From a virus (lineage: Duplodnaviria; Caudoviricetes): 41,827 bases of DNA. Positions 4,010 through 41,283 of the stretch are shown piece after piece. Position numbers and translations under genes: made by a program. Within the stretch, counting starts at the first letter, position 1. Each line of letters opens with the position of its first letter. The notes below the pieces were generated by a model. It made no database searches and was not told the origin of the DNA. It saw only the letters and a program-made list of their open reading frames with translations. Location: positions 1 to 41,827 of the IMG/VR virus record IMGVR_UViG_3300043633_000023, one strand, 5' to 3'.

Positions 4010-4792
4010 ATGTCATCATCCGGCTCGTTCCAGGCTTACAAGGTAACCAACCAACTTAATGGCCGGGTCTATATTGGCATCACCCGACAGAAGCTCCGCT
4101 CACGATGGATGGCCCATGTAAGTTGGGCGAAGTGTGGACGAAAGGGTGTTCTGGCGGATGCAATCCGCGAGCATGGTGAAGCGGCGTTTGTTATGGAGCA
4201 TCTGGCGTCTGCTAGGACATGGGACGATCTGTGTGCCGTTGAACTGGCGCTGATCTGTCAGGAACGCACGACCATCTGGGATGGCGGCTACAATGTGACG
4301 CAAGGCGGCGAGGGTATGAACGGCTATGTGGCGACCGAAAGTCATCGGCGAGCCATAAGCGCCAAGCTCAAGGGAGTGCCTAAAAGCGCGGAGCAACGTG
4401 CCAAGTTGGCATTGGCTCGGACTGGAACGACCGCCAGTCCAGATACAAAGGCGAAGATGTCTGCCGCGCACAAGGGTAAGTCTCAGTCTCCAGAATGGGT
4501 GCAGCGTCGGATGTCGGCCACCGCCGGGCGAAAATGTTCGGCAGAAACGCGGGCTAAGATATCGCTGGCAAGGAGCATTCAAAAGGCATCTGCCGAGACA
4601 AAGGCGGAAATGTCGGCATCGAGGAAAGGCCGCAAGCTCAACCTGTCACCGGAACAGCGTGCAGCGTATTCCGCAGCCAAAACAGGATTGCGGCACTCAG
4701 CCGAAACGCGCGCGAAAATATCGGCTGCGCGTAGAGCGCGTGAGGCAGCAAAGCGCACACAAGAGAGCAGCCAGGAAAGGTTGCAATTATGA
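4010..4792 (+). CDS. Free-standing GIY-YIG homing endonuclease with NUMOD3 repeats
   Basis: AYKVTNQLNGRVYIGIT, RWMAH, GYNVTQGGEG, then repeated SAETRAKISxxxxG units. Confidence 0.9.
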   Translation: MSSSGSFQAYKVTNQLNGRVYIGITRQKLRSRWMAHVSWAKCGRKGVLADAIREHGEAAFVMEHLASARTWDDLCAVELALICQERTTIWDGGYNVTQGGEGMNGYVATESHRRAISAKLKGVPKSAEQRAKLALARTGTTASPDTKAKMSAAHKGKSQSPEWVQRRMSATAGRKCSAETRAKISLARSIQKASAETKAEMSASRKGRKLNLSPEQRAAYSAAKTGLRHSAETRAKISAARRAREAAKRTQESSQERLQL

Positions 4793-5005: not shown

Positions 5006-5353
5006 ATGCCGTTCGATCTACTGCCGGAACGCGAGGCCGAGGACATCGTCCGCCTGCGGGTGGCGCGCGACGGGGTCGGCGCCGGCTGGAACACCGGCAA
5101 TCTGGGGCTGGAGGAGGACCAGAGCCACTGCGCGATCGGCTGGCTGCTGGTGGCGACGGACTGGGATGAGGCTGCGGCCACACAGTTGGCGCTGGATTAC
5201 GTCTGGCCCGCGCTGCCGCCCGCCGCACAGGCCAAATACCAGGGCAAGATCGAGGCGATCTACAAATACAACGACAACGGCGACAGGAAGAGCGTGCTGC
5301 GGCTCTTCAACGAGGCGATCCGCCTGGCCGAAAAGGCCAATGAGCCTCGATGA
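5006..5353 (+). CDS. Hypothetical protein (DUF6197-like)
   Basis: GGGGAGG RBS; motifs GW, HCAIG, YND and VLRLFNEAI. Confidence 0.55.
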   Translation: MPFDLLPEREAEDIVRLRVARDGVGAGWNTGNLGLEEDQSHCAIGWLLVATDWDEAAATQLALDYVWPALPPAAQAKYQGKIEAIYKYNDNGDRKSVLRLFNEAIRLAEKANEPR

Positions 5354-6305
5354 GCAGTCGTCCGCCCCGTGGGACTACGAACGCCAGCTCATTGACCGCA
5401 TAGCCATCCGCGAGGCCGCGGCGACACTCACGCCCAGGCTGCGGCGCGTCATGGCGCAATACTACCATCGCGGCGAGACGCTGGAGGAGATCGGCTACCG
5501 CGAGGGGTGCGGCAAGGAACGCATCCGGCAGATACTGGAGAAGGCGGAACGCAAGCTACGCGAGGCGGTGGCCGGGCCGAATATCACCACAGTGCCGCCG
5601 CTACAGACCACGGCACAGACATTCCCGCCAGGCTTCGACAAGGCCGCGTTCCTCGCTCACATGCGCGGGCTGCGGGACTGGGAGGCCAACCGCAAGGCGC
5701 GCGAGTTCGAGGTTGAACGCCGCCGCCTGGCCGAGATGCTGGAGGAGGAGCGCAGAAGCCGGGGCATGGCGGCGAAGCTGGCCGAGACCCACGCGGAACT
5801 CCTCAAGGCCAAGGGAACATCACTGCCGCCCGGCACCAGCCTCAAGATCAAGCTCCCGGTGCAATACACGGTCCATCCCGGCACCATTCCACCGCCCCCG
5901 AGCCACGCCCCGACGAAATACCACTACCACGACGGCGCCACGGCATATCCTGGCCAGACGTACCACCACCCGCCGCCGCTGACGCACGAGGAGATGGTCA
6001 CCAAAGCGGACTGGGCGCTCCGGTTGTTCCTGCTATCCAGGCGACCGACCACCGCCGGCGTCCCGTGGCTCGGGAAGATGGCAACCCGAGTGCAATACCC
6101 GCGCGATGGCGGCCAGATCGGCGAGGCCGTGGCGCAACTGGCCCGCGATATCCCGCAGAACGCCCTGCTATCCGCGCATCCGTTCGAGCTGCCCGAGGGC
6201 GTCAAGGGCGCGATCGCCACCAATAGCTGGGCCAGCCTGCGGGTGTTGGCCAGCAAGGACGACCTGCTGCTGTTCGTCGATGCCACCTGGGACGAAGGGC
6301 CATGA
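5340..6305 (+). CDS. Sigma70 region-4 HTH fused to a degenerate coat-protein-like C-terminal region
   Basis: LTPRLRRVMAQYY..ETLEEIG...KERIRQILEKAERKLR is a sigma4 HTH signature. Four segments of the C-terminal half match the coat protein of this genome. Confidence 0.75.
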   Translation: MSLDEQSSAPWDYERQLIDRIAIREAAATLTPRLRRVMAQYYHRGETLEEIGYREGCGKERIRQILEKAERKLREAVAGPNITTVPPLQTTAQTFPPGFDKAAFLAHMRGLRDWEANRKAREFEVERRRLAEMLEEERRSRGMAAKLAETHAELLKAKGTSLPPGTSLKIKLPVQYTVHPGTIPPPPSHAPTKYHYHDGATAYPGQTYHHPPPLTHEEMVTKADWALRLFLLSRRPTTAGVPWLGKMATRVQYPRDGGQIGEAVAQLARDIPQNALLSAHPFELPEGVKGAIATNSWASLRVLASKDDLLLFVDATWDEGP

Positions 6306-6311
6306 CATGCG

Positions 6312-6689
6312 ATGGAGCAGCCGCCGCCAGAGCATAGACCGCGCAACTGGCTGACGCTCTCGGTGCTCGGCACCGCCGCCGGCATCGGCGTCTACGTCTT
6401 CACCATTGGCAGCCAGATCGGCGCCATGCGCCACCAGCTCGATAACAACGATATACGCATTACGGCACTGGAAACGCACGGCAGCGGGCCAGTTCAGACC
6501 GCCGCCGCCAAGGTGGACGCCGTCATCGCCCGCGCCGACCGCATCCTCACCGAACTGCTCGCCATGCAGCAGCGAATTGCGGACATCCAGGCCACCCAGC
6601 AGGCGCAAGCCGGGGCCATCGCCCGCCTGCAGCAGGACATGACCACGCGCCGGCAACTGCCGGACCCACCAACCAACGGGGAACGATAA
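6312..6689 (+). CDS. Single-TM coiled-coil protein (holin- or spanin-like candidate)
   Basis: TM segment WLTLSVLGTAAGIGVYVFTIG followed by a Q-rich heptad region. Confidence 0.55.
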   Translation: MEQPPPEHRPRNWLTLSVLGTAAGIGVYVFTIGSQIGAMRHQLDNNDIRITALETHGSGPVQTAAAKVDAVIARADRILTELLAMQQRIADIQATQQAQAGAIARLQQDMTTRRQLPDPPTNGER

Positions 6690-7426
6690 TGCGCCATTAC
6701 CTCGGCATTGGCATGATCGCGTCGGCCGCATTCAGCGCCGCCATCGCGCTCTCGCCCCATCCCGCCCACGCCGCGCTGCAACTCGCCGCACAGTTCGGCG
6801 CCACCACGTTCCTCTGCGTCGATAACGCAGCGTGCGACACCAACCTGTCCACCGGCACCATCCAGATCGCCGACCAGACCATCGGCGGCGTAACCGTCAA
6901 TGGCTCCATCCAGGGATCGGTAGGTACGCTGGCCAATCCGAACCCGCTGGACATCCTGAACACGTCATCTCTGAGCGCGATCAACACGCTAGGCGTGGCC
7001 GTGGGATATACCGTGACCGTCTCGGACACTAGTTTTGCCGCCCCAGTCGGGCAATTCAGTACATCCGGCGCGGGCACCTTCGAGAACGCGGTCGGCTCCA
7101 CCGCCCTGATGCGCTGGTGGGCCGATAGCGCCAACGCTCAAGGCGCCGACGCGATCAACGACACGCCGGGGACGTTGCTCGACAGCTTCTCCACCACGGC
7201 CACGCTCATCGCCGACGCCTACAGCCACAGCGGCAGCGGCGCGTTCGTCGCCACATCCCCGTTCTCGATGACCGAGCAGATCACCGGCACCATCGCCGCC
7301 AACGGCACGCTGCTCAACCGTGGGCAGACTGAGATCCTGTCGCCGGTGCCGGAGCCGGCAAGCATGGCGCTGCTGGGCATGGGGCTGCTGGGCATGGCCA
7401 TGTTCGGCAGGAGGTCACGGCGCTAG
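6689..7426 (+). CDS. PEP-CTERM sorting-domain exported protein
   Basis: Signal peptide ending AHA/A; S/T/G/N-rich body; C-terminus VPEPASMALLGMGLLGMAMFGRRSRR. Confidence 0.92.
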   Translation: MRHYLGIGMIASAAFSAAIALSPHPAHAALQLAAQFGATTFLCVDNAACDTNLSTGTIQIADQTIGGVTVNGSIQGSVGTLANPNPLDILNTSSLSAINTLGVAVGYTVTVSDTSFAAPVGQFSTSGAGTFENAVGSTALMRWWADSANAQGADAINDTPGTLLDSFSTTATLIADAYSHSGSGAFVATSPFSMTEQITGTIAANGTLLNRGQTEILSPVPEPASMALLGMGLLGMAMFGRRSRR

Positions 7427-7428
7427 CC

Positions 7429-9618
7429 ATGCCCAAGCCAAAAGCCGCAGACGAGAAGATCCTGCGCGAGGCGAAGGCGCGCTTTGAGCGTTGCCAGGCG
7501 TGGGAAAGCGCATGGCGCGATCGTGCCAAATTCGACATCAAGTTCGCCAACGGAGACGCGCTCAACCACGGGCAGTGGGACAGCAACGTCCGCCAGGAGC
7601 GCGGCGCGCGGCCGTGCCTGACGTATAACCAAACGAGACAGCACAATTTGCAGGTCATTAACGATGCAAGACAAAATAAGGCGCAGATCAAGGTAACGCC
7701 GACCGGCGGGCGGGCATCCTACGAGAGCGCCCAGATCTTCGCGGGCATCATCCGCCGCATCGAATACCAGAGCAAAGCCGTCGATGCCTACTCCACCGCC
7801 ATTTACCACCAGGTCGAGAGCGGCATCGGCTACGTCCGCGTCGAAACCGACTACGTGGACCAAAATTCGTTCGATCTGGACCTGTTCGTCCGCCGCATCG
7901 CCGATCCGTTCACGATCTACTGCGACCCGGATGCGAAAGAATACGACAAGGCGGACATGAACTTCTGCTTCGTGTTCGAGGACGTGCCGCGGGATCGCTA
8001 CGAGGAGGAATACGGCAAGGAGGACAGCCCCGCGCCGGCGACGTTCGACAACACCGACAACTGGTCCGACAAGGATCACGTCCGCATCGCCGAATACTGG
8101 CGCCGCAACATCAGCGACGAGACGATCCACCTGATGCAGGACGGAACGACGGTGCGGGACAGCGAAATCCCGGCCGAGGTGCGGGAGCAACTAACCCCGT
8201 TCATCGTCAAGAGCCGCAAAGTCGCTGAGCCCGAGATCGAGTGGTTCAAGCTGGCGGGCAACAAGATCATCGACCGCGAGGAATGGCCCGGAAAGTATAT
8301 CCCGATCGTGCCGTTCATCGGCGAAGAGCTGGTCATCGACAACGAACTCGACCGCAAGGGCCACACACGGTCCCAGATCGACGCACAGCGCATTTACAAC
8401 TACTGGGCGAGTGCTGCCGTTGAACAGGTCGCGTTACAGACCAAGACGCCGTATGTCGCCACCGCTGCGGCCATCCAGGGCCACGAAGAACAGTGGATCA
8501 CGGCAAATATCAAGAACTGGAGCGTCCTGCTCTACAACGGCGTCGGCGAGGACGGCGCCCCGATCGCCCCGCCGGCCCGCGAGCCGCCCCCGCAGATGGC
8601 CCAGGCATACATCACCGGGATGACCATCGCCCGGCAGGATCTCATGTCGGTCACCGGCCAGTATCAGGCCGAGCTGGGCATGCCATCCAACGAGCGCAGC
8701 GGCATCGCCATCCAGCAGCGCCAGCGCCAGGGCGATACGGCGACGTATCACTACATCGACAACCAGGCCAAGGGCATCCGCCAGATCGGCCGCATTCTGC
8801 TCGATCTCATCCCCAAGATTTACGATGTGCAGCGGGTCGTCATGACGCTGGGGGAAGACGGCAGCGAGGCCAAGGTCGTGGTCGCACCCGATGCCCCCGA
8901 GGCCCACCAAGCGATCGGACAGGGGCCTGACGGACAGCCGCAAACGCTAACGCAGGGCGATGCCCAGCAGCAGATGCAAGACCCGGACAAGCCGGACCCC
9001 ACGATCATCTTCAACCCGAACGTGGGCATGTATGACGTCGAGGCCGATGTAGGGCCGAGCTACGGCACCCAGCGCCAGGAAGCCGCCAACGCATTCTCGC
9101 AGATCATGGCGCAGAACCCGGCGGCATTTCAGATCGTCGGTGACTTCTGGGCAAAGAACAGCGACTTCCCCGGCGCGGACGAACTCGCCGACCGGCTCAA
9201 GCGCGGGTTGCCGCCGATGTACAAGGCCGACGCGCCCGATCCACAGGTCATGGCGATCACCCAGCAGGCGCAGCAGACGCAGCAGCACGCGCAACAGCTT
9301 CTCGGCCAAGCCGATCAGGAGATCCAGCAGCTCAAGCAGCAGGTCGCGGTGTTGCAGGCGCAGGCCAAGGACAAGAGCGCCGAGATTGCCGTGCGCGACT
9401 ATGAAGCCGAGACCAAGCGGCTCGATGTGGTCGGCGGGATCGATCCGCTCAGCCTGCAAATCGTGGTTCGGCAACTCGTCACCGACATGCTCCAGACGGA
9501 ACTCGCCCCGATGCTGCACGGCCACGCCGACATGGAGGGGCAACTGGCGCAACGCATGGCCCCGCCACAGCCCATGAACGGCGAGGGCGCTCCCGCAGCC
9601 ACAGGACCGATGCAATGA
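7429..9618 (+). CDS. Portal protein (P22 gp1-like)
   Basis: 729 aa; QWD...RPCLTYN, YIPIVPFIG, SGIAIQQRQRQG, YDVEADVGPSYGTQRQE; C-terminal coiled-coil barrel. Confidence 0.93.
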   Translation: MPKPKAADEKILREAKARFERCQAWESAWRDRAKFDIKFANGDALNHGQWDSNVRQERGARPCLTYNQTRQHNLQVINDARQNKAQIKVTPTGGRASYESAQIFAGIIRRIEYQSKAVDAYSTAIYHQVESGIGYVRVETDYVDQNSFDLDLFVRRIADPFTIYCDPDAKEYDKADMNFCFVFEDVPRDRYEEEYGKEDSPAPATFDNTDNWSDKDHVRIAEYWRRNISDETIHLMQDGTTVRDSEIPAEVREQLTPFIVKSRKVAEPEIEWFKLAGNKIIDREEWPGKYIPIVPFIGEELVIDNELDRKGHTRSQIDAQRIYNYWASAAVEQVALQTKTPYVATAAAIQGHEEQWITANIKNWSVLLYNGVGEDGAPIAPPAREPPPQMAQAYITGMTIARQDLMSVTGQYQAELGMPSNERSGIAIQQRQRQGDTATYHYIDNQAKGIRQIGRILLDLIPKIYDVQRVVMTLGEDGSEAKVVVAPDAPEAHQAIGQGPDGQPQTLTQGDAQQQMQDPDKPDPTIIFNPNVGMYDVEADVGPSYGTQRQEAANAFSQIMAQNPAAFQIVGDFWAKNSDFPGADELADRLKRGLPPMYKADAPDPQVMAITQQAQQTQQHAQQLLGQADQEIQQLKQQVAVLQAQAKDKSAEIAVRDYEAETKRLDVVGGIDPLSLQIVVRQLVTDMLQTELAPMLHGHADMEGQLAQRMAPPQPMNGEGAPAATGPMQ

Positions 9619-10581: not shown

Positions 10582-11337
10582 ATGAGCGACCAGCCCAACG
10601 CACCGCCCCCCGGCGAAGGCGAACCCGCGCCCGCAGCCGAGCCGACACCCGCGCCTGCCCCGGCACCCGCGCCGGAAGGCGAGCCGCCCGAACAAACCCC
10701 GGAACAGGCCGCCGAAGCCAAGTCACGCGGCGACAGACGCTTTGCGGAACTCACGGCCAAGCTCTCGGCCAGGGAACGCGAGTTCGCCCGCGTCAACGAG
10801 GAAAACGAACGCCTGCGCCGCATCGCCCAACAGGTGCCGCAGCAGCAGGCAAGCCCCGAGTTGCAATACCAGCAGGAACGCGAGCAGCTCAGAGCCGAGG
10901 CGCGGGCAGAAGCCAAGCAGGAACTGCTCAAGGACCGCTTCCACGAGGAGGGCAACTCGGCATATCCGGACTGGCCGCAGAGAACGCGCGAACTGATGGC
11001 CATGGGCGCGGATGGCGGCTTTGCCCAGTTGCTGGTGAACATGCCGGGCGGCGTGCGTGTCACCGCTGCCCTCGCCGACGATCCTGCCGCCGTCCAACGC
11101 ATCGCCAGCATCCAGACGCTGGAGGGACGCGCCGTGGCGCTGGGCAAATACGCAGCCCAGATCGAGGACGGAGCGGGCAGAGCCGTGCATACCCCACGCC
11201 CGGTGACCAGTGCCCCGCCGCCCATCCGCACCGTCACCGGGCGGGCTAACCCGCAGTTCAACGAATACGCCGCCAGCGGCCAGGACTTGGTTGATAAATA
11301 CATGAAGGACGACCTGGCACGCCGTCAGCGCCACTGA
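10582..11337 (+). CDS. Scaffolding protein
   Basis: Lies between portal and coat; P/E-rich N-terminus, RFAELT coiled coil, SAPPPI near the C-terminus. Confidence 0.8.
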   Translation: MSDQPNAPPPGEGEPAPAAEPTPAPAPAPAPEGEPPEQTPEQAAEAKSRGDRRFAELTAKLSAREREFARVNEENERLRRIAQQVPQQQASPELQYQQEREQLRAEARAEAKQELLKDRFHEEGNSAYPDWPQRTRELMAMGADGGFAQLLVNMPGGVRVTAALADDPAAVQRIASIQTLEGRAVALGKYAAQIEDGAGRAVHTPRPVTSAPPPIRTVTGRANPQFNEYAASGQDLVDKYMKDDLARRQRH

Positions 11338-11344
11338 GAGACAC

Positions 11345-11531
11345 GCCCACCCCGCCGCGGCCGGGTAATGCCGCTGTAGCTACCGCCCAAGGTCGTCGCG
11401 CCCGACCCTAAACCGCGCTGCGCCGTGCCAATCCGTCTGTGATTGCGGCTAAGTCCTTCGTCACAGCGAGCAATCGAGACCCCAAGAACTACTTGACAGT
11501 GAGGGGTCCTTTAGTTCAATGTGACGAAGGA
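11345..11531 (+). ncRNA. Candidate structured leader RNA of the coat gene
   Basis: 12-bp stem 11454-11465/11520-11531 covers the RBS and encloses a possible pseudoknot; more hairpins lie upstream. Confidence 0.45.
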
Positions 11532-11540
11532 TATCCTAAT

Positions 11541-13570
11541 ATGCCCGCAACCAATACTCTGTTGACTATCAACATGATTACGGCAAAGGCGCTGGCTATA
11601 CTTCACCAAAAGTGCAACTTCATCGGTTAACTGTAGCCGCTTTGCCGGGTAACCGGCATCGAAGAACGCTGTGAACTCAGGGAAAATCTTGCTATCAGGC
11701 CGGAACGTATGTTAGCTTTCAGTATGCCTGACGCCAAGACAATCCTGAGCCAAGACCTGAGATGGGCGAAAATCCAGCTTGACCCAACATGCAGCAAATG
11801 CCGCATCAGAAAGACGCCAGCAGACTTTCCGAGGAATGCTGTGGACTACTGGTGCAGCAGGTGCCGCAGTGATTACGCGATAGACCTGTATCGGAAAAAG
11901 GTGGCTTCTCTCTCACCCCTAGACCTGGCAAAGTTTCGGGACAAGGTAAGCGAGAGGCAGAGCCGCCAGCGAGACGCAAGGATCGCTTCCATGCCGAAAA
12001 AGCAACTTGAGGCATGGCGGATGCAGATCAACGCCGGCAACACGATGCGCAGATATGAGGTCAGAGACCGGGTTTACCGAGCTTATGGCGGATATGTCTG
12101 CGCATGCTGCGGAGAGACCGAAAAAGCCTTTTTGAGCATCGACCACATCGAGAACGATGGGGCGACTCACAAACGGAAATTTAACCTCAAAACCGGCGAG
12201 CAGATGTATCGCTGGCTGGCAAGGAATAATTTTCCGTCAGGCTTTCAGATCCTCTGCATGAATTGCCAGTGGGGTAAGCGGAACAATGGCGGAATTTGCC
12301 CACATCAGGTAAGGTGCAACGACCATCCCGTTGAGGGAGTAGGGCCAAGCGGCCCGAAGCGCAGCGCACCCGTCTAATCAGCGGGTGATGATATGGTCTG
12401 CTCTGCATGGTGACATGCAGCAGCCCGCAAGGGCGGTTTTGGGGGTAGCGTCCCAAGGCGAACACAAGGGCAATCAACCGTCAATACGATGACAGCTTCG
12501 CGAATAGTGGCGCCAAAATCGGCACTACTCTCCGCATCCGGCTCCCGGTGCAATACACCACCAGCACCACCCCGGCGCTGTCGCTCCAGAATACGGTGGA
12601 AACATCCGTCAGCCTGCCGATCACCAACCAATACCACGTCGATTTCAGCTTCAGCAGCGCCGAGCTAACCCTCACCATCGACGAGTTCAGCGCCCGCTAC
12701 ATCGAGCCGGCCATCGCCCAGCTCGCCGCCAGCATCGAGGCCGCAACCATCAACATGATGTGGCCGACAGTGTGGAACCAGGTGGGAACAGCGGCCAGCG
12801 CCATGCCGTTCAAGACCGTGTTGCAGGCCCGCAAGCTGTTGCTGGACAACCTCACGCCGCAGAGCAAGCAGTGGCTCCTCCGCATCAACACCCAGGACAA
12901 CGTCGATCTCGTTGATGTCACGAAAGGATTATTCCAGGCTTCTACCCAGATCGCCAAGCAATACACCGATGGCGTGATGGGGCTGTCTGCTGGGTTCGAG
13001 TGGGCAGAGAACACGCACTTGACCACCCAGACACGCGGGGCGGAATCGGGTTATCTCGTGTCGCCGGCATCGCAAACTGGCAGCACGCTCGCCGTCATCA
13101 CCGGCACCGGCGCGGGAAATGCCGGGGACATCTTCACCATCACCGGCGTCTATCGCGTGCATCCCGAGACGAAAATCAATACGGGTGTGTTGCAACAATT
13201 CGTCCTCACAGCCGCATATACCGGCGGCGCGGGCAACATGGCCATCGCACCGGCAATCGTCACCAGCGGCCCGACGCAGAACGTCTCCAACAGCCCAGCC
13301 CTCAACGCGCCGATCACGTTCGCCAACACGGCGTCCGTCGCTACCGGCCTGTCGCTCGCATTCCACCCGGATGCGTTCACCTTCGCCACCGCCGACCTCG
13401 TAATGCCCGGAGGCGTGGACATGGCCTCGCGGGTCGTCAAGGACGGCATCTCGATGCGCGCCGTGCGGCAATACAGCATCAGCGACGACACCTTCCCCAT
13501 CCGCATCGACGTGCTCTGGGGCGCCGTTGCACTTCGGCCACAACTCGCCTGCCGCTTGGTTGCGAATTAG
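11541..13570 (+). CDS. Major capsid protein (P22 coat-like), spliced join(11541..11627,12470..13570), 395 aa
   Basis: Joining the exons gives MPATNTLLTINMITAKALAILHQKCNFIG|AINRQYDDSFANSGAKIGTTLRIRLPVQY...RIDVLWG..LRPQLACR. Confidence 0.93.
11628..12469 (+). ncRNA. Group I self-splicing intron (IA-like, with P7.1 and P7.2)
   Basis: 5' exon ends in U with a U.G pair in P1. P2 has a GUAA loop. P3 pairs 11667-73/12360-66, P4 pairs CTCAGG/CCTGAG, P7 pairs GACCA 12321/TGGTC 12394. P8 and P9 hairpins and a terminal G at 12469 are present. Confidence 0.92.
11709..12377 (+). CDS. Intron-encoded HNH homing endonuclease with Zn-finger motifs
   Basis: CSKC and CSRC; CACCGE..FLSIDHIENDG...LCMNCQWGK; the bulk of the ORF loops out of P6a. 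Confidence 0.85.
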   Translation: MLAFSMPDAKTILSQDLRWAKIQLDPTCSKCRIRKTPADFPRNAVDYWCSRCRSDYAIDLYRKKVASLSPLDLAKFRDKVSERQSRQRDARIASMPKKQLEAWRMQINAGNTMRRYEVRDRVYRAYGGYVCACCGETEKAFLSIDHIENDGATHKRKFNLKTGEQMYRWLARNNFPSGFQILCMNCQWGKRNNGGICPHQVRCNDHPVEGVGPSGPKRSAPV

Positions 13571-39777: not shown

Positions 39778-40511
39778 GCCGCGAGCGGTTCATGGCCGCC
39801 CTCGCCAAGCTCGTCCAACCCGACAACGCCGAGGAAGCCGGACGCGCACTCGCCAACATGCTGCCCATGCTCACCGACATGCCCGAGCATGCCTTCGCCA
39901 GCCGCACATGCCTCAACGCCGTCGCCACCGCCAAGCGCCGCACCATCGTCCCGAGCTACGCCGATATCCGCAACGCCATCGGCGCCTGGCAACGCGAGCA
40001 ACCTAGCGCCCCAGCTATCGGCGAGGCCGCCGGCCTGGACGAGAATGGCCGCATGTGGCTCGCCTACTTCCGCCGCCGCGAGAACGAATACTTCCACACC
40101 CAGAACGGCAAGCCTTCGTCCCGCGAACTCTGCCTTAGCCTCGTCAAGCAGCAATCCCTCCCGGCATGGGAACGCATCACCGGCAACGAAGCCGAGCCAA
40201 TGCGACCGCGAACCGACGAGGAAAAGCGTGCCGTTCGGGAGATCGTCGCAGCCTACGATCGCGAAGTCGCCGCCCACCGCGACGTCCTCAAGGTCGAGGC
40301 GCCACGTTCGCACTCGCTTGGCGACCAAATCGCCGCCGCCCGCGCCGCAATCATGCCGACCATCGAGCACGAGCCGCTTGAAGCGGCCGAGGAACTGCCG
40401 GAACCGGAGCCCATCGACGCCGACGAGCCGCCGCCACCCGAGCCGGACGATGAGCCGTGGCTGGACGAGGACGACCTTGAGTTCGCGCCGCTGGAGGACG
40501 AGCACGCATGA
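39774..40511 (+). CDS. Hypothetical protein (helicase-loader position)
   Basis: Follows the initiator; PSYADI motif; acidic tail. Confidence 0.55.
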   Translation: MSRERFMAALAKLVQPDNAEEAGRALANMLPMLTDMPEHAFASRTCLNAVATAKRRTIVPSYADIRNAIGAWQREQPSAPAIGEAAGLDENGRMWLAYFRRRENEYFHTQNGKPSSRELCLSLVKQQSLPAWERITGNEAEPMRPRTDEEKRAVREIVAAYDREVAAHRDVLKVEAPRSHSLGDQIAAARAAIMPTIEHEPLEAAEELPEPEPIDADEPPPPEPDDEPWLDEDDLEFAPLEDEHA

Positions 40512-40696
40512 CCGATCGCACGCCAATGCTCACCAAGATCGGAACCGCCGGATACACCAGACAAAACCACGACGCCATGGCGCAACACGCCAACGACGCA
40601 CTGCGCGCCGGCAATTACGAACTCGCCGCAGCCTTCGCACAGGCCGCCGCCGCCTACGCCGTCGCACACGCTACCTACGGCAACGCCCCCGAATGA
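40508..40696 (+). CDS. Hypothetical protein
   Basis: Coupled overlaps. Confidence 0.5.
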   Translation: MTDRTPMLTKIGTAGYTRQNHDAMAQHANDALRAGNYELAAAFAQAAAAYAVAHATYGNAPE

Positions 40697-41283
40697 CCGC
40701 ACTCGCCCACCAAACGCTTGACCCTAAGCCATTGACGCGCATAAAAGCGCCGCAACCTGACGCCAACCACGCCGGGTGCGGTAGCTATTGGCTGGTCGCA
40801 CAAACCCACCCACAAGCCGAACGATGGGCCTCGTCACAGCTCACCGCCGCCGGCTATCACACATACCTGCCGCTTATCGTCGTCCAGCGCCGCGATCGGC
40901 ACACTCCGACAATGCTGCACCGCGTCGAGCGCCCGCTGTTCACCGGCTACGTCTTCGTGGCCGTTGGAACCGAGGACCGCTGGTCACCGATCCTGTCCTA
41001 TCGCGGCATTCGCCAGGTGCTCATGAGCGGCGCTACACCCCACCATCTCGATCCAGCCATCATGAGCGCCCTACAGGCCGGTGACGCCTTCCGCCGCCTC
41101 CCACTACCGGACGCACCGCTCCTGCGCCCTGGCGCCCCCGTCACGTGCCTGTACGGGCCATTCCAGGGACGAGAGGCCGTGGTGATTAGCGCGGCGACGA
41201 ATACCGCACGCATCGCACTCCCAATGCTCGGCGCCATGAGGGAACTCACCGTGCCAATCACCTGTCTCACAGCACGGGATTAG
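40693..41283 (+). CDS. NusG/RfaH-family antiterminator (late regulator)
   Basis: WLVAQTHPQAE, YLP, RPLFTGYVFV (NGN domain); GAPV...GPFQG (KOW domain). Confidence 0.88.
   Translation: MTALAHQTLDPKPLTRIKAPQPDANHAGCGSYWLVAQTHPQAERWASSQLTAAGYHTYLPLIVVQRRDRHTPTMLHRVERPLFTGYVFVAVGTEDRWSPILSYRGIRQVLMSGATPHHLDPAIMSALQAGDAFRRLPLPDAPLLRPGAPVTCLYGPFQGREAVVISAATNTARIALPMLGAMRELTVPITCLTARD

Follow-up and report, generated by a model that had tools for sequence, protein, structure and literature searches.

A sigma-4-type helix-turn-helix protein of a P22-like phage carrying a very probable remnant of the phage's own coat protein

In shells of the HK97 fold the A-domain, the E-loop hairpin and the terminal hairpin have established roles in shell building, and phage T4 uses gp24 as a second capsid protein. 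In the literature examined, HK97-fold derivatives were described either as whole-fold paralogues or as A-domain-only proteins. For the coat of phage P22, the accessible text of PMC9965877 defines the N-arm as residues 2-30 and the P-domain as residues 79-127 plus 358-416, and states that the scaffold binds the N-arm and R101. Here we describe a 321-aa protein of a P22-like phage in which a sigma70 region-4 helix-turn-helix (HTH) is joined to a coat-like C-terminal part. The window, by which we mean the whole stretch of DNA analysed, is the complete record of 41,827 bases (Table 1).

The start of the gene overlaps the end of an upstream ORF, its start context was identical in six of six close copies, and the layout of the protein was common to 14 other full-length proteins. 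Taken with the single open frame, this shows that the HTH and the C-terminal part are co-translated, as the sequence-only reading had proposed when it described a fusion of a sigma4 HTH with a copy of the coat. Sigma matches from Pfam, PHROG and NCBIfam mapped to the C-terminal part of the sigma models; the NCBIfam matches were confined to residues 4-81, and sigma70 region 2 (core binding, -10 melting) is absent, with all sigma matches lying within residues 4-84. Weak PHROG matches were to phrog_36 (E 0.0017) and phrog_79 (E 0.047). The HTH has a KERIRQ recognition helix, which we take to resemble the -35-reading helix of primary sigma factors. The protein qualifies neither as a capsid protein nor as a sigma factor. 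The charged helix behind the HTH gave zero matches to profiles of scaffold, portal, terminase and coat; derivation from the scaffold was rejected (P 0.14), with no match to nine other gene profiles either.

Table 1. Positions of the 321-aa gene, its parts, the surrounding head genes and examples of other coat-derived ORFs in relatives
Feature	Position (strand)	Details
Whole gene (P0001)	5340-6305 (+)	Single open frame, 321 aa; accessory, between the terminase and portal genes
Sigma70 region-4 HTH	5421-5564 (+)	Residues 28-75; Pfam PF04545 (Sigma70_r4), E 4.7e-11
Charged helix with conserved GFDKAAFLxHM motif	5625-5762 (+)	Residues 96-141
Coat-like peptide GTSLKIKLPVQYT	5832-5870 (+)	Matches coat 47-59 (12521-12559); in Pro/His-rich variable linker
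Mini domain, very probably coat-derived	5973-6293 (+)	Residues 212-318; AF2, structure search, profiles, dN/dS
Terminase	1029-2351	Pfam/PHROG matches
P22-type portal	7429-9618	Pfam/PHROG matches
Putative scaffolding protein	10582-11337 (+)	Position before coat; without family match
Coat exon 1	11541-11627 (+)	Residues 1-29, N-arm helix; very probable source of the mini domain's first helix
Coat exon 2	12470-13570 (+)	Residues 30-395, PF11651
Type-B mini-coats, examples	L058:662-1135; L045:4146-4625; L090:9920-10477
N-arm helix plus peptide ORFs	L012:5710-6651; L045:6844-7203; L099:8183-8536; L101:7091-7498	Also in L013, L014, L016, L029

The C-terminal part, here called the mini domain, was modelled by AF2 with pLDDT of about 88-98 by block as helix-strand-helix plus four strands, namely an N-arm-like helix (216-234), a strand (247-254), a short spine helix (260-270) and C-terminal strands (276-318). 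Compared with 48,161 chains, it matched HK97-fold proteins (encapsulins or phage capsids, as assigned from chain titles) in 9 of the top 10 and in 27 of the best 50 matches listed, with T4 gp24 also appearing in the list. The best match had a Z-score of 6.8 (rmsd 3.7, 94 residues aligned), and the P22 coat one of 4.5 (rmsd 3.2, 86 residues aligned over 22-415); alignments to HK97-fold chains comprised 70-98 residues spread along nearly the whole coat length. Foldseek, suggested beforehand as a check on the coat likeness, likewise placed a phage capsid on top when run against PDB (E 0.075). An ESM Atlas search with the mini domain gave zero matches.

No coat model of Pfam or PHROG, PF11651 and phrog_283 included, matched the 321-aa protein, and neither single-sequence searches with the mini domain nor a profile search of longer proteins retrieved any coat. 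The link to the coat therefore needs profiles, structure and intermediate families. We took the natural uninterrupted coat of the relative L001 as reference and built a P-only coat profile from 22 sequences cut to residues 4-28, 76-124 and 330-382. Against it, the family profile scored 31.1 locally and 18.8 globally, and none of 200 shuffles reached either value (local maximum 17.6). Random three-piece composites of real phage proteins reached the local score in 0 of 400 cases (maximum 22.0) and the global score in 1 of 400. The uncut coat profile gave 25.8 with 0 of 150 shuffles as high, a test that is weak alone because a terminase control scored 22.6, and with a low-diversity coat profile 2 of 60 shuffles reached the score. 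The sequence-only reading had staked its claim on a significant profile or structure match to coats: the P-only profile match stands above all shuffles, whereas Pfam, PHROG and single-sequence searches yielded none.

Matching segments of coat exon 2 lie at 12521-12559, 12698-12736 and 13394-13519. Among the four coat-like segments originally listed, the third and fourth reappeared unprompted as the two matches of the family-versus-coat profile alignment (P 0.16 and 0.004), while the second is part of the global alignment but three residues off the register claimed for it and not significant alone. The long middle of the coat is missing, as had been noticed: coat residues 125-329 gave no match to the family in 80 composites, and in place of the A-domain the spine helix passes straight into the C-terminal strands. 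The I-domain is absent as well, the E-loop hairpin has left as its sole trace an out-of-order 13-residue peptide of low model confidence in 11 of 39 members, and the C-terminal hairpin is 4-5 residues shorter than that of the coat. Present in reduced form are the N-arm helix and the P-domain (AF2, structure search, profile tests and calibration with the type-B mini-coats described below), and these pieces are the counterparts of the N-arm and P-domain delimited in P22. The N-arm residues M12, K16 and H22, invariant in close coats, are lost in the family, and the conserved positions of the mini domain resemble core residues.

Because independent evidence from structure, profiles and intermediate families agrees, we conclude that residues 212-318 very probably descend from the phage's own coat. 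The HK97-fold core remnant tethered to a sigma4 module, as first envisaged, is thereby sharpened to an N-arm helix plus P-domain. A non-coat origin, with a common alpha/beta arrangement causing the resemblance and only the 13-residue peptide coming from the coat, would fit the weak direct profile scores, the fact that all structure Z-scores were below 8, and the presence in the same list of CAP-domain rows and of an unrelated chain at rank five (Z 5.8) that we take to be archease-like, but is very improbable given that three independent kinds of evidence agree. Without A-domain, I-domain and E-loop hairpin and with the terminal hairpin shortened, the mini domain as modelled would not be expected to build a shell.

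The remaining segment is the peptide GTSLKIKLPVQYT in the linker. Its match to the coat, 10 of 13 residues identical, is real and was the top non-self tblastn match within the window (E 0.048), and the coding DNA shares a 17-nt identical stretch (blastn 31/39 nt, E 8e-4), as had been reported from the sequence. However, it is out of coat order and outside the folded domain (AF2 pLDDT about 58-60), and beat all 300 shuffles in only 11 of 39 members, some of them only about 40% identical to the query. It probably corresponds to the first E-loop strand region. The core IKLPVQYTV is retained between members just 40-43% identical, and a profile from 65 close coats matched only this peptide in the 321-aa protein. 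For residues that are identical anyway, codon usage gives the five shared codons a chance of about 0.02, and the same codons are present in two orthologues and two other coats. The DNA match therefore fits common descent and is no demonstration of recent copying; recent gene conversion at the peptide is unsupported.

At least 42 proteins belong to the family of the 321-aa protein. Fifteen of them, the query among them, came from a full-length search (39-80% identical), residues 160-321 searched against 1.84 billion representatives gave 26 matches (24 new), and the profile search of longer proteins gave 12 (3 new). In this homologue search, which had been recommended for the fusion, the HTH was joined to the mini domain in 30 of 39 scanned members, comprising all 15 of the full-length set and 15 of the 24 found later; several HTH-less members look truncated, and P0020, P0026 and L084 carry other N-termini. 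Wherever both neighbours are present (L001, L002, L003, L084, L122), the gene lies between terminase and portal. The family forms a long-branched clade apart from the coats (100/99 support). Pooled dN/dS of six close copies, from non-independent pairs and with a portal reference of about 0.07, was 0.22 in residues 212-318, as against 0.50 in the HTH, 0.44 in the charged helix and 0.56 in the linker. No other part of the gene is as constrained as the mini domain, which is under purifying selection. Among cultured phages there were zero credible matches for the mini domain (5 records, E 1-7) or for type-B mini-coats. In GTDB genomes no prophage carrier of the gene was found, and two weak Vibrio matches, confined to the charged helix, were dismissed. 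Short low-depth contigs of relatives overlapped the gene in three of six listed soil RNA runs, for which DNA carry-over is possible, and two of these three showed listed pieces.

A coat-profile scan of relatives revealed further small ORFs built from coat pieces. The type-B group of 19 proteins (P0040-P0058) combines a Tat-like RRGFL N-terminus with a mini-coat P-domain in 16 cases and stands alone in three (104-124 aa). HHalign aligned type-B mini-coats to the coat in two blocks that run in the same order, with probabilities of 98% and 96%; they are less diverged than the query family and unmistakably coat-derived. Their model reached a best Z of 6.9 and had 9 of the query's top 10 chains, archease included, within its top 11; A0A6J5NY35 was the top BFVD match of both. 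Between the query family and the type-B group, 1 of 150 shuffles scored as high locally (P 0.002) and 14 of 150 globally. The stand-alone P0041 had a P22 coat cluster in its top ESM Atlas row, under the bar of the tool. Close to the scaffold gene or the coat gene, other small ORFs carry a coat N-arm helix and a GxxLRxRxPVxY peptide, most of them with a deletion of 8-9 residues and some preceded by a permuted spine piece.

Coat-derived paralogues were present in 16 of 30 distinct head modules (terminase to coat) and none was detected in the other 14; after clustering the count was 14/28, and the share is slightly inflated by two modules that were found by searching for the paralogue itself. By type, the query family occurs in five modules, P-domain minis (alone or behind a Tat-like start) in six, and fragments of N-arm plus peptide, permuted in some cases, in seven, with two modules counted under two types each. 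The mini-coat types measured had dN/dS of 0.1-0.3, with one near-identical pair at 0.56. In a 55-row tree each of four P-domain types formed a supported clade. All coats fall together on one side in 66% of the bootstrap trees, and the tree is compatible with a single origin as well as with several. Because the module occurs in several architectures in related phages, the remnant needs no HTH to be retained by selection. Two small uncharacterised phage proteins, A0A6J5NY35 (116 aa) and A0A384ZX87 (112 aa, Dickeya phage JA29), match the mini-domain fold and may extend the module outside this phage group.

The head-module region is insertion-rich. In the window, a GIY-YIG/NUMOD3 endonuclease-like gene (4010-4792), which was not found in the closest relatives L001-L003, also lies in the terminase-portal interval, and the gene directly before the portal (6689-7426) ends in a PEP-CTERM motif and recurs in several relatives. 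In the annotated phage collection, no coat is more than 42% identical to that of the window. The coat gene is interrupted by a group I intron at 11628-12469 (Rfam RF00028, E 3e-8, under the gathering score); its exons abut exactly in L001, and the coat gene is likewise interrupted near this position in L046, L047 and L055. The 222-aa ORF of the intron (11709-12377) is without Pfam match and presumably encodes a Cys/His endonuclease. Upstream of the coat gene lies a conserved structured-RNA-like leader (11400-11543) with zero Rfam family matches, in which 21 of 29 predicted pairs showed compensatory change among 12 chosen relatives. Its outer stem extends into the ribosome-binding region, and the leader is a candidate translational control element. 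At 39889-41283, a 464-aa gene has an antiterminator-like domain (phrog_6386) at its C-terminus, and its product is likely a late-gene activator.

The best reading of the 321-aa protein, which we put forward tentatively, is that of an assembly-docked sigma-4 regulator whose remnant would dock the HTH protein on scaffold or free coat. Head assembly might then sequester the protein from DNA or RNA polymerase, or package it as a regulator; the HTH is predicted to act on -35-type DNA or on RNA polymerase. The retained N-arm helix packed on the P-domain would be the surface to which scaffold attaches in the P22 procapsid, and such docking would be the simplest reason for keeping a coat domain on an HTH protein made among head genes. 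Even if coat descent is granted, docking and regulation together are somewhat less likely than not. The single frame, the HTH, the conserved family, purifying selection, head-module position and patchy presence are established, and the putative scaffold is a candidate partner through a C-terminal motif conserved across 63 distinct relatives' stretches. A complex prediction with the L001 coat, the scaffold C-terminus and residues 160-321 gave 0.34/0.00/0.35, with 0.25 for a coat-replaced control, values that speak neither for nor against docking. Binding of the cognate scaffold is weakened as a proposal by the missing M12, K16 and H22. The separate antiterminator-like gene of the same phage and the 14 of 30 related head modules lacking a detected mini-coat also count against the proposal. 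The mini domain must also have a use without transcription, since there are other mini-coats that have no HTH. As a target of the HTH, a sigma70 promoter in front of the coat was rejected: the TTGACA (11493) is part of a variable loop and is absent from the relatives' 130-nt upstream stretches. A promoter scan stayed at chance level (4 matches vs 3.0 expected), and no conserved target site upstream of the coat was found among relatives. In a wider and more doubtful form of the docking proposal, P22-like phages would maintain a set of mini-modules taken from the coat (P-domain remnants, N-arm/E-loop peptides) as address tags or sensors for the assembling head, here wired to a sigma4 module for feedback between assembly and transcription within one protein, or as a regulator that heads would carry into the next cell.

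Two close rivals have to be weighed against docking. Remnant and coat peptide might act as a decoy that occupies host capsid sensors without activating them, the HTH being a second, separate activity. Capsid sensors are common: according to the part of 10.64898/2026.01.04.697583 available, Avs7/8/10 and Dsr1 sense by shape and Lit and CapRel by short motifs, and capsid sensors are also described in the accessible text of PMC13728456. The patchy presence in an insertion-rich head module (16/30), the several N-terminal partners or none, and the recurrence of the coat peptide in other small ORFs, of which those measured show purifying selection (dN/dS about 0.3), would all suit a decoy. Nevertheless, Avs7 chiefly contacts the A-domain (10.64898/2026.01.04.697583, same part), and this domain is missing from the remnant; a mimic could trigger sensors instead of blocking them, and the HTH fusion in 30 of 39 members is left unexplained, so that we consider a decoy rather unlikely. 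Full exaptation, in which the P-domain remnant has become a stable oligomerisation or ligand-binding domain of the regulator with no contact to head proteins, is unlikely too. It is consistent with the long branch apart from the coats, with core-like conserved positions and lost coat-invariant N-arm residues, and with A-domain encapsulins as an isolated HK97 sub-domain in a new role (PMC8346489, accessible part), but not with a gene that stays in the late head module wherever its context is known, nor with the close coat peptide kept in 11 of 39 members.

Quite improbable is an assembly poison against competing related phages, a fragment that binds growing shells or scaffold and cannot extend the lattice. 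Its anatomy, without A-domain or E-loop hairpin, would suit a chain terminator, and Ccm shows, in the accessible text of PMC8569155, that capsid homologues can redirect assembly. Because the gene is co-oriented with its own coat in the late region, and carrier and non-carrier coats are 62-90% identical to the window's coat, such a poison would hit the phage's own heads; the lack of a prophage carrier in GTDB genomes also speaks against it.

If the docking proposal is true, the mini domain would be a minimal version of the coat's scaffold-binding face and the fusion a candidate for an open question, a protein sensor coupling phage transcription to head assembly; for another, phage capsid decoys against capsid-sensing immunity, the mini-coats would likewise be candidates. 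Compared with sigma4-like phage regulators, presumably of the RinA/ArpU and Q-like kinds, the protein has the stand-alone region-4 HTH in common; unlike those regulators, it is encoded among the late genes, relatives can do without it, and it has a very probably capsid-derived domain. With P22-like coats (PF11651, phrog_283; P22 gp5, CUS-3, Sf6) it shares N-arm, P-domain strand, start of the spine and C-terminal strands in the same order, but the mini domain keeps about 105 of 395 residues, has neither A-domain, I-domain nor E-loop hairpin, sits behind an HTH and is accessory. SaPIbov5 Ccm (PMC8569155, in the text available) and T4 gp24 are likewise second capsid-derived proteins beside a main coat; they are, however, whole HK97 folds at pentamers, and Ccm is satellite-encoded, whereas the remnant here belongs to a phage that itself encodes a terminase, a portal and a coat. 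The A-domain encapsulins of Family 4 (PF08967) are, like the mini domain, an HK97 sub-domain of about 100 residues standing alone, as far as the accessible text of PMC8346489 describes them, but they keep the A-domain and belong to cellular enzyme operons, whereas the complementary part is kept here, in a phage head module and with an HTH; PF08967 gave no match to the 321-aa protein. Searches of the open literature turned up neither a P-domain-only remnant nor the fusion seen here, in line with the novelty first claimed for it. The observation is real, the 321-aa gene very probably represents an exaptation of the HK97 fold in a new form, and an N-arm/P-domain module under selection and reused with different partners in about half of this phage group would, if true, be the missing complement to the derivatives described so far.
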